A stretch of 494 bases of DNA from Escherichia coli (GTDB lineage Bacteria; Pseudomonadota; Gammaproteobacteria; Enterobacterales; Enterobacteriaceae), in NCBI RefSeq assembly GCF_003334385.1, contig NZ_QOWN01000174.1. One strand, given 5' to 3'. The notes under the pieces are model-generated. The model saw only the letters and a list, made by a program, of their open reading frames with translations, was not told where the DNA came from and did not search any database. Below, one piece after another: positions 1 to 494 of this stretch (positions are counted from its first letter, which is position 1; each line of letters opens with the position of its first letter). The translations under genes and the position numbers were made by a program.

Positions 1-494
1 TTTGCAGGTGTACGATAAGACCAGGCGGCTTCGTAAAGCAGACGTCTCAGTTCGCTGTTTCCAACTTTTGTTATTCCCCTGGGACGAATGCTGTTTCCAC
101 TGGAATATTCCCCTGGAACCAGTCCCAGAAAAGCCATGAGTTGTTTGGGACTGGAAAATCGTGAAAAATCACCCAGTTCAGCAACCAGGGTTATTGCGGT
201 TAGCTGACCAACACCTTTAAGGGCCTGTAACTGGCAGACCAGATTGCACAGAGACCACTCAGGTAACAGGCGGGATATTTCCTGGTCGAGTTGAAGTATG
301 CGATCTTCAATCTGCTCCAGACTCTGACAATAGTGTTGAAAAGCAATCTGTTGAGATGGCTGACTAAATGATTGATTGGCTAACCAGGTTCGATGTTTGC
401 CGGTCCAGTGCTTCCCTGCATAACGTTTGTCTGTTCGCAATAGCATGCTCAGAATTCGCTGTCGGGCAACTCTGCTGTCTCGTTTAGCTGCTGC
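1..494 (-). CDS. IS110-family transposase (DEDD-type recombinase), internal fragment; N-terminus lies beyond position 494 and C-terminus beyond position 1
   Basis: Hand translation of the reverse complement starting at position 494 gives 164 sense codons with no stop (codons occupy 494 down to 3; positions 2-1 start the next codon). Family motifs recalled from memory are present: helix-hairpin-helix-like LKGVGQLTAITLVAELGDFSRF (approx 156-221), FLGLVPGEYSSGNSIRPRGITKVGNSELRRLLYEAAW (approx 21-131) with the conserved Ser-Gly (second Ser of YSSG, codon at 99-101), and a heptad-like linker SLEQIEDRILQLDQEISRLL (approx 261-320). All three plus-strand frames contain stops (for example frame 1 TAA at 16-18, frame 2 TGA at 137-139, frame 3 TGA at 162-164). 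No database search was run. Confidence 0.9.
1..494 (-). mobile_element. Internal portion of an IS110-family insertion sequence; element ends and insertion site not in window
   Basis: Inferred from the transposase CDS: IS110-family elements are small and consist mostly of the single recombinase gene. No element boundary, target site or flanking host sequence is visible, so the extent and intactness of the element cannot be assessed. Confidence 0.75.

Follow-up and report, generated by a model that had tools for sequence, protein, structure and literature searches.

A 494-nucleotide stretch of Escherichia coli DNA, referred to here as the window, carries six exact matches to CCWGG, the Dcm sequence, and nine such matches are found in the complete coding sequence of which it is part. 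The question that this locus raises is whether so many sites in so short a sequence exceed what chance would provide and, if they do, whether they reflect the encoded protein, DNA repair in the host, the genome from which the DNA came or a function of the sites themselves. As set out below, the answer depends on the expectation against which the sites are counted, and we consider it probable that the six sites are incidental products of a transposase coding sequence, arising from composition plus chance, and that they signal neither function nor foreign DNA.

The transposase gene and its CCWGG sites

The frame on the minus strand that begins at window base 494 is the only one that is open over all 494 bases. 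It covers window positions 1-494 and corresponds to codons 139-302, an internal portion of the 377-codon transposase gene of ISEc45, an IS110-family element. Both the window and the whole coding sequence show 100% nucleotide identity to coding sequences annotated as 'IS110-like element ISEc45 family transposase', and matches to the window were found in 1,279 of the 5,426 complete E. coli genomes searched, as well as on 182 plasmids, most of them from Escherichia and Klebsiella. In strain NCTC86 the 377-codon coding sequence lies on the minus strand at L001:19775-20908. The ISEc45 protein passes the NCBIfam model NF033542 ('IS110 family RNA-guided transposase') with 279.9 bits, the cutoff being 140. 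Two Pfam domains were also recognised on the minus strand. Transposase_20 (PF02371; amino acids 227-298, window positions 15-230; E=4e-24 with the window translation and 1.6e-23 with the full protein) contains four of the six CCWGG sites, while the N-terminal DEDD/RuvC-like domain DEDD_Tnp_IS110 (PF01548; amino acids 10-158; E=3.6e-15 with the full protein) is mostly outside the window and reaches it only with its C-terminal end, at positions 435-494. Both Pfam domains, the NF033542 match and the complete nucleotide identity are common to the window gene and the known element, and judged from sequence the window is ISEc45 itself, with nothing that differs. In the literature that our search returned, ISEc45 is named only as a catalogued mobile element.

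A pattern search returned exactly six CCWGG sites in the window. Those listed in the first-pass annotation at 21-25 and 185-189 (CCAGG) and at 78-82, 112-116 and 281-285 (CCTGG) were all recovered; the sixth had been placed at 374-378, where the bases read GATTG, and the true site (CCAGG) is 10 nt further on at 384-388. We agree with the same annotation that the sites come from unrelated codon pairs and are not a single-dipeptide effect, as their contexts are A-W, P-R, P-G, T-L-V, D-Q-E and T-W and cover all three codon phases. The gaps between sites (57, 34, 73, 96 and 103 nt) show no periodicity, and regular spacing was rejected.

Read on the coding strand, the site at 21-25 is GCC TGG and encodes Ala295-Trp296, a pair that is written as CCTGG in 43% of cases in E. 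coli genes. Seven distant homologs were compared (from Alpha- and Betaproteobacteria and Bacillota, along with ISSso6 of E. coli); six of them keep the A-W-S context of this site, and four of those six also have CCWGG there. This context, at residue 295, is the only one of nine site contexts that is conserved across the distant homologs, and family-wide protein constraint was therefore rejected as the sole cause of the sites. The site at 78-82 is CCC AGG (Pro276-Arg277) and includes the rare AGG codon. All six other ISEc45 copies that cover it have CCAGA, with AGA for arginine, indicating that the site is a recent, lineage-specific gain through a synonymous AGA-to-AGG change at window base 78. 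At 112-116 the site is CCA GGG (Pro265-Gly266); the family consensus here is P-S-E and not P-G-E, and 41% of the P-G pairs in host genes are written as a site. Thr240-Leu241-Val242 (ACC CTG GTT) gives the site at 185-189, which is lost as TCTGG in decayed Klebsiella copies, and Asp208-Gln209-Glu210 (GAC CAG GAA) gives that at 281-285, which is TCAGG in a 91%-identical fragment (L011). Finally, the site at 384-388 is ACC TGG (Thr174-Trp175), and the host writes 83% of its T-W pairs as a site; the family consensus at this point is mostly R/K-W-L, with G-W in one homolog.

Slower evolution of the sites was not seen in any of seven comparisons between ISEc45 copies (89-98% identical): differences at site positions were approximately at or above expectation in all of them, and purifying selection on the sites was rejected. 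The most widespread ISEc45 variants have one CCWGG site fewer. The decayed Klebsiella copies have lost CCWGG by C-to-T changes, and two of these fell on the inner cytosine, leaving CTAGG (CDS position 126) and CTTGG (position 884). The inner cytosine is the one that Dcm methylates, and such changes carry the signature of 5-methylcytosine deamination, an indirect hint that the sites may be methylated.

Two further observations concern the divergent copies. The Klebsiella plasmid copies at L008:601-1739 and L009:601-1735 contain indels, being 1,139 and 1,135 nt long compared with 1,134, and have no CDS in the plasmid table. In the 91% fragment (E. coli N10, L011:1001-1833), two differences that turn CAG into CTG, and thereby Gln into Leu, coincide exactly with the central W of CCWGG at CDS positions 126 and 249, and both sites survive despite the non-synonymous change; this is probably a coincidence in a pseudogene.

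Expected and observed numbers of sites

The first-pass annotation had put the expectation from base composition at about one site, and this figure stood up well: we obtained 0.85 from base frequencies, 1.08 from dinucleotide shuffles (none of 200 of which reached six sites) and 1.24 from the density of the host. The host background was 250 kb of one chromosome of the same strain, in which CCWGG occurs at 2.54 per kb, in agreement with the published K-12 total of 12,050 sites, a number described as a 26% (approximately 1.26-fold) over-representation (bioRxiv 10.1101/070839). The density in the window is 4.8 times the host mean, and that in the gene 3.1 times. At least six sites were present in only 0.23% of sliding 494-bp host windows, and the corresponding Poisson probability was 0.0018.

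It can be seen that this excess is considerably reduced when the protein is held constant. Synonymous permutation of the codons in the window gave 2.94 +/- 1.25 sites (P=0.023), cutting the excess from about five-fold to about two-fold without removing it. Very similar results came from resampling codons according to host usage (2.61 sites expected, P=0.025) and from the rates at which the host realises sites in each specific context (2.65-2.98 expected, P=0.029); in addition to the fractions for T-W, A-W and P-G given above, these rates were 20% for x-Q-g, 10% for x-L-g and 2% for P-R. The ISEc45 protein offers 9.15 potential CCWGG sites per 100 codons compared with 5.75 in host genes, and this richness means that roughly half of the apparent five-fold excess is dictated by the protein. 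The first-pass annotation would have given up the excess if codon-preserving shuffles gave similar counts or if the host had a comparable density. On raw counts neither similarity was found, the shuffles giving 2.9 and the host 1.24 against six observed, and we regard its case for giving up the excess as only half made by these comparisons.

Shorter words within the pentamer are over-represented as well. Compared with the host, the window has 30.4 against 14.0 CCAG/CTGG and 22.3 against 10.4 CAGG/CCTG per kb, and CAG/CTG is raised about two-fold, which is a consequence of a sequence rich in Gln and Leu. A maximal-order Markov model accordingly expected 4.23 sites, for which the Poisson probability of at least six is 0.25; the expectation is partly circular, since in a short sequence the pentamers feed the tetramer counts. 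There is also the number of motifs that might have caught the eye: when 128 restriction-type palindromic motifs were considered, 20.4% of 505 host windows held a palindrome that was equally extreme, and about 24 windows with at least six CCWGG are expected per genome. We conclude that the excess in the window goes beyond chance under the naive expectations, is marginal once protein and codons are controlled for (P=0.02-0.03), and does not exceed chance when sub-words or the number of motifs are taken into account.

The excess over the whole gene is less easy to dismiss than that in the window. The ISEc45 coding sequence has nine CCWGG in 1,134 bp (7.9 per kb), a density above that of all 130 long host ORFs sampled, for which the maximum was 7.05 per kb, and nine sites are reached by no more than 0.16% of host windows of this length. 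Whole-gene synonymous permutation gave P=0.0013-0.0022, the ratio of observed to expected sites being 2.4 for ISEc45 against 0.83 for host genes as a group; with the codon usage or the context rates of the host the probability was only 0.045-0.05. The gene belongs to the upper tail of the distribution, and holds a rank that some handful of the approximately 5,000 genes of a genome must hold.

Among the E. coli ORFs of loci L002-L006, there were 452 CCWGG against 542 expected from synonymous permutation (0.83), and 97 CTWGG plus CCWAG against 264 (0.37). As the host ORFs fall below the permutation expectation, the published over-representation of CCWGG depends on the null model that is used.

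A high site density is not a general property of insertion sequences, and this possibility was rejected: IS3, IS2, IS21, IS4 and IS66-family genes of the same strain have only 0-3.9 sites per kb. IS3 (L001:7469-8631) has no CCWGG in 1,163 bp, IS2 (L001:16183-17411) has one in 1,229 bp, and ISSso6 (L014:298-1425), which is an IS110-family element in E. coli, has a single site. With these elements poor in CCWGG and ISEc45 rich in it, the density varies widely and in both directions among the insertion sequences of E. coli. Nor is the richness in CCWGG a trait of the IS110 family. Among the 131 genes sampled the density of ISEc45 was the highest, and within its family it is unique, a peculiarity of this element.

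Explanations for the excess

The explanation that we favour is the incidental one. According to this, a Gln/Leu-rich stretch written with CAG and CTG codons, together with Thr-Trp, Ala-Trp and Pro-Gly pairs that E. coli commonly writes as CCWGG, would provide the raw material for the sites. The make-up of protein and codons would lift the expectation from about one site to about three or four, with the other two or three representing sampling noise, and one site arose through the recent AGA-to-AGG change. A search for the K-12 dcm-vsr DNA found it in 98.9% of E. coli genomes (5,368 of 5,426), and in such hosts the sites would presumably be ordinary Dcm methylation targets and hotspots of 5-methylcytosine deamination that are repaired by Vsr; we infer that they have no role in the expression or transposition of ISEc45. 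The result as it stands matters little, other than to illustrate that an approximately five-fold excess of a restriction or methylation motif, seen in a coding window as short as this, can cease to be significant once the protein sequence, the codon usage, the sub-word composition and the number of noticeable motifs are counted in.

A second process may have contributed in a minor way, in addition to what the protein and its codons provide and again without any function for the sites. In hosts that have both Dcm and Vsr, very-short-patch repair of T:G mismatches in CTWGG or CCWAG yields CCWGG, which over a long stay in such hosts would deplete these one-step neighbours and leave a residual excess of the pentamer, and a preprint that cites Bhagwat and McClelland 1992 proposes Vsr repair for the over-representation of CCWGG in the genome at large (bioRxiv 10.1101/070839). 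The near-universal presence of dcm-vsr in E. coli is consistent with this, and the ISEc45 gene has the pattern expected. Under codon-preserving permutation it has nine CCWGG against 3.77 expected, and one CTWGG or CCWAG against 4.44 (P=0.038). The sum of CCWGG and these neighbours, 10 against 8.2 expected, is close to expectation, which indicates a shift between the classes. The ratio of CCWGG to CTWGG plus CCWAG is 9:1, compared with 15:18 in the pooled non-enteric homologs (Fisher P=0.026), and resembles the 452:97 of host genes; the Dcm sites of E. coli and those of the ISEc45 gene are thus the same pentamer with the same skew, CCWGG being raised and CTWGG/CCWAG lowered. However, the numbers behind the skew are small. 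Relatives allowed three site differences to be compared (CCAGA to CCAGG, TCAGG versus CCAGG and CCATG versus CCAGG), none of which is of the kind that very-short-patch repair produces, although only one of them is confidently polarised. In the same hosts ISSso6 has one CCWGG against 3.2 expected, IS3 and IS2 on the same chromosome have none and one, and host genes overall are not above the codon-permutation expectation. The genome-wide effect, moreover, is far smaller than the enrichment in the window or the gene, and cannot alone account for the excess in ISEc45. On balance, we regard a contribution from Vsr as possible but rather doubtful.

The first-pass annotation had suggested that the excess could be due to chance or could be a trace left by the composition of the donor genome. 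Chance, combined with composition, is what the shuffles, the sub-words and the one in five host windows that are comparable point to, and it is the second part of the suggestion that the homolog counts fail to support. A donor trace would mean that ISEc45 came from a lineage intrinsically rich in CCWGG and has not yet ameliorated. The element is mobile, it has rare AGG and AGA arginine codons, which core E. coli genes do not typically use, with two of the nine sites depending on AGG, and its GC content of 46-48% is slightly under that of core regions. Against this, the closest non-enteric homologs (approximately 50% identical, from Pseudosulfitobacter, Azospirillum, Sphingobium, Burkholderia, Paenibacillus and Bacillus) have 0-3.6 sites per kb, with permutation probabilities of 0.6-1.0. 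Indeed none of the seven distant homologs has more CCWGG than its own codon shuffles predict, and in view of this lack of enrichment a donor signature was rejected. Nearly all relatives at the DNA level come from Escherichia, Klebsiella or other Enterobacteriaceae, the depletion of CTWGG/CCWAG in ISEc45 is like that of its hosts, and the site at 78-82 is a gain that took place within E. coli. Composition alone would also not give a genome of 46% GC the 8-12 sites per kb in question, as it predicts 0.85 per 494 bp. A donor trace is therefore very unlikely.

We give still less credence to a selected function, according to which selection would have raised the number of Dcm sites in ISEc45 to its high level, so that dense Dcm methylation, or recognition by Vsr or an EcoRII-type enzyme, tunes the expression or mobility of the element. 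This might, for example, link the element to stationary phase, in which the methylation of Dcm sites becomes complete, with growth-phase methylation or Vsr nicking modulating transposase expression or recombination. The gene-level density, which is above that of any host ORF sampled, might be taken in its favour, and there is a precedent in the control of IS10, IS50 and IS903 by Dam methylation at GATC, where the motifs are conserved and lie in the transposase promoter or in the ends to which transposase binds. ISEc45 resembles these systems in having the motif of a host orphan methyltransferase inside an insertion sequence. It differs from them in that its sites are all intragenic, are absent from the ends and are not conserved in the IS110 family; the promoter-side and terminal non-coding regions are free of CCWGG, and regulatory placement was rejected on these grounds. 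Among ISEc45 copies the site positions change no more slowly than the average position, degenerate copies lose sites through C-to-T changes, the most widespread variants do with one site fewer, and the excess in the window is not significant after control for composition. A true Dcm-dependent effect would tie an orphan cytosine methyltransferase to an RNA-guided recombinase, and would be the first example of an IS110-type enzyme under Dcm-linked control, but nothing that we found points there. The first-pass annotation claimed no function, and neither the copies nor the homologs give reason to depart from its caution.

Repeats, ends and insertion sites of ISEc45

In the window, a repeat search identified an imperfect direct quasi-repeat at positions 54-119, with its copies about 34-36 nt apart and two of the six sites inside it. 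The first pair of segments, GCTGTTTCCA at 54-63 and 90-99, is exact and encodes G-N-S in the same phase. The second pair, TATTCCCCTGG[G/A]AC at 72-85 and 106-119, is read in different phases, as P-R-G-I and P-G-E-Y. At the DNA level the sites at 78-82 and 112-116 consequently share an identical 11-nt context within the 14-nt quasi-repeat; when the order of the codons was shuffled, only 2.6% of the shuffles had an exact 11-mer direct repeat. The idea that one repeated unit of DNA gave rise to the sites was rejected, as only two of the six fall in the quasi-repeat and the count is left unexplained.

The same region is also divergent. Compared with five other full-length copies of the gene, the window has four substitutions within 40 nt, at positions 78, 90, 111 and 117, all of which are synonymous, so that the local divergence of this lineage is about 10% against 2-3% over the gene as a whole. 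The G at position 90 is common to the window lineage and the 91% fragment L011. The changes at 78 and 111 each take the base of the other copy of the quasi-repeat, and bring the two copies from 11/14 to 13/14 identical; this convergence could be a coincidence or could reflect short templated conversion. Two imperfect inverted repeats are also present inside the coding region, a 19-nt overlapping palindrome at 91-122 (84% complementarity) and a pair of 14-nt arms set 8 nt apart at 119-154 (86%).

The ISEc45 element is approximately 1.42 kb long, with non-coding ends of about 65 nt on the 5' side and about 240 nt on the 3' side of the coding sequence. All nine of its CCWGG sites are within the coding sequence, and the non-coding ends, where signals for regulation or recombination would be expected, have none. 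The long non-coding end 3' of the transposase gene (L001:19536-19774) is a place that might encode a guide (bridge) RNA. An Rfam search of L001:19300-21300 gave no match at E<=0.1, the long 3' end being without a known RNA family, and an overlap of the element with a structured RNA of a known family was rejected on that result.

At L001 (19536-19774 and 20909-20956), and likewise at L007, L008, L010 and L012, ISEc45 interrupts tnpC-like genes of the IS66 family at one conserved position, where the flank reads ...TTCTTCGG... The IS66 sequences that flank the different copies are diverged from one another although the position is the same, which indicates independent, sequence-targeted insertions of ISEc45, as would be expected for IS110-family elements.
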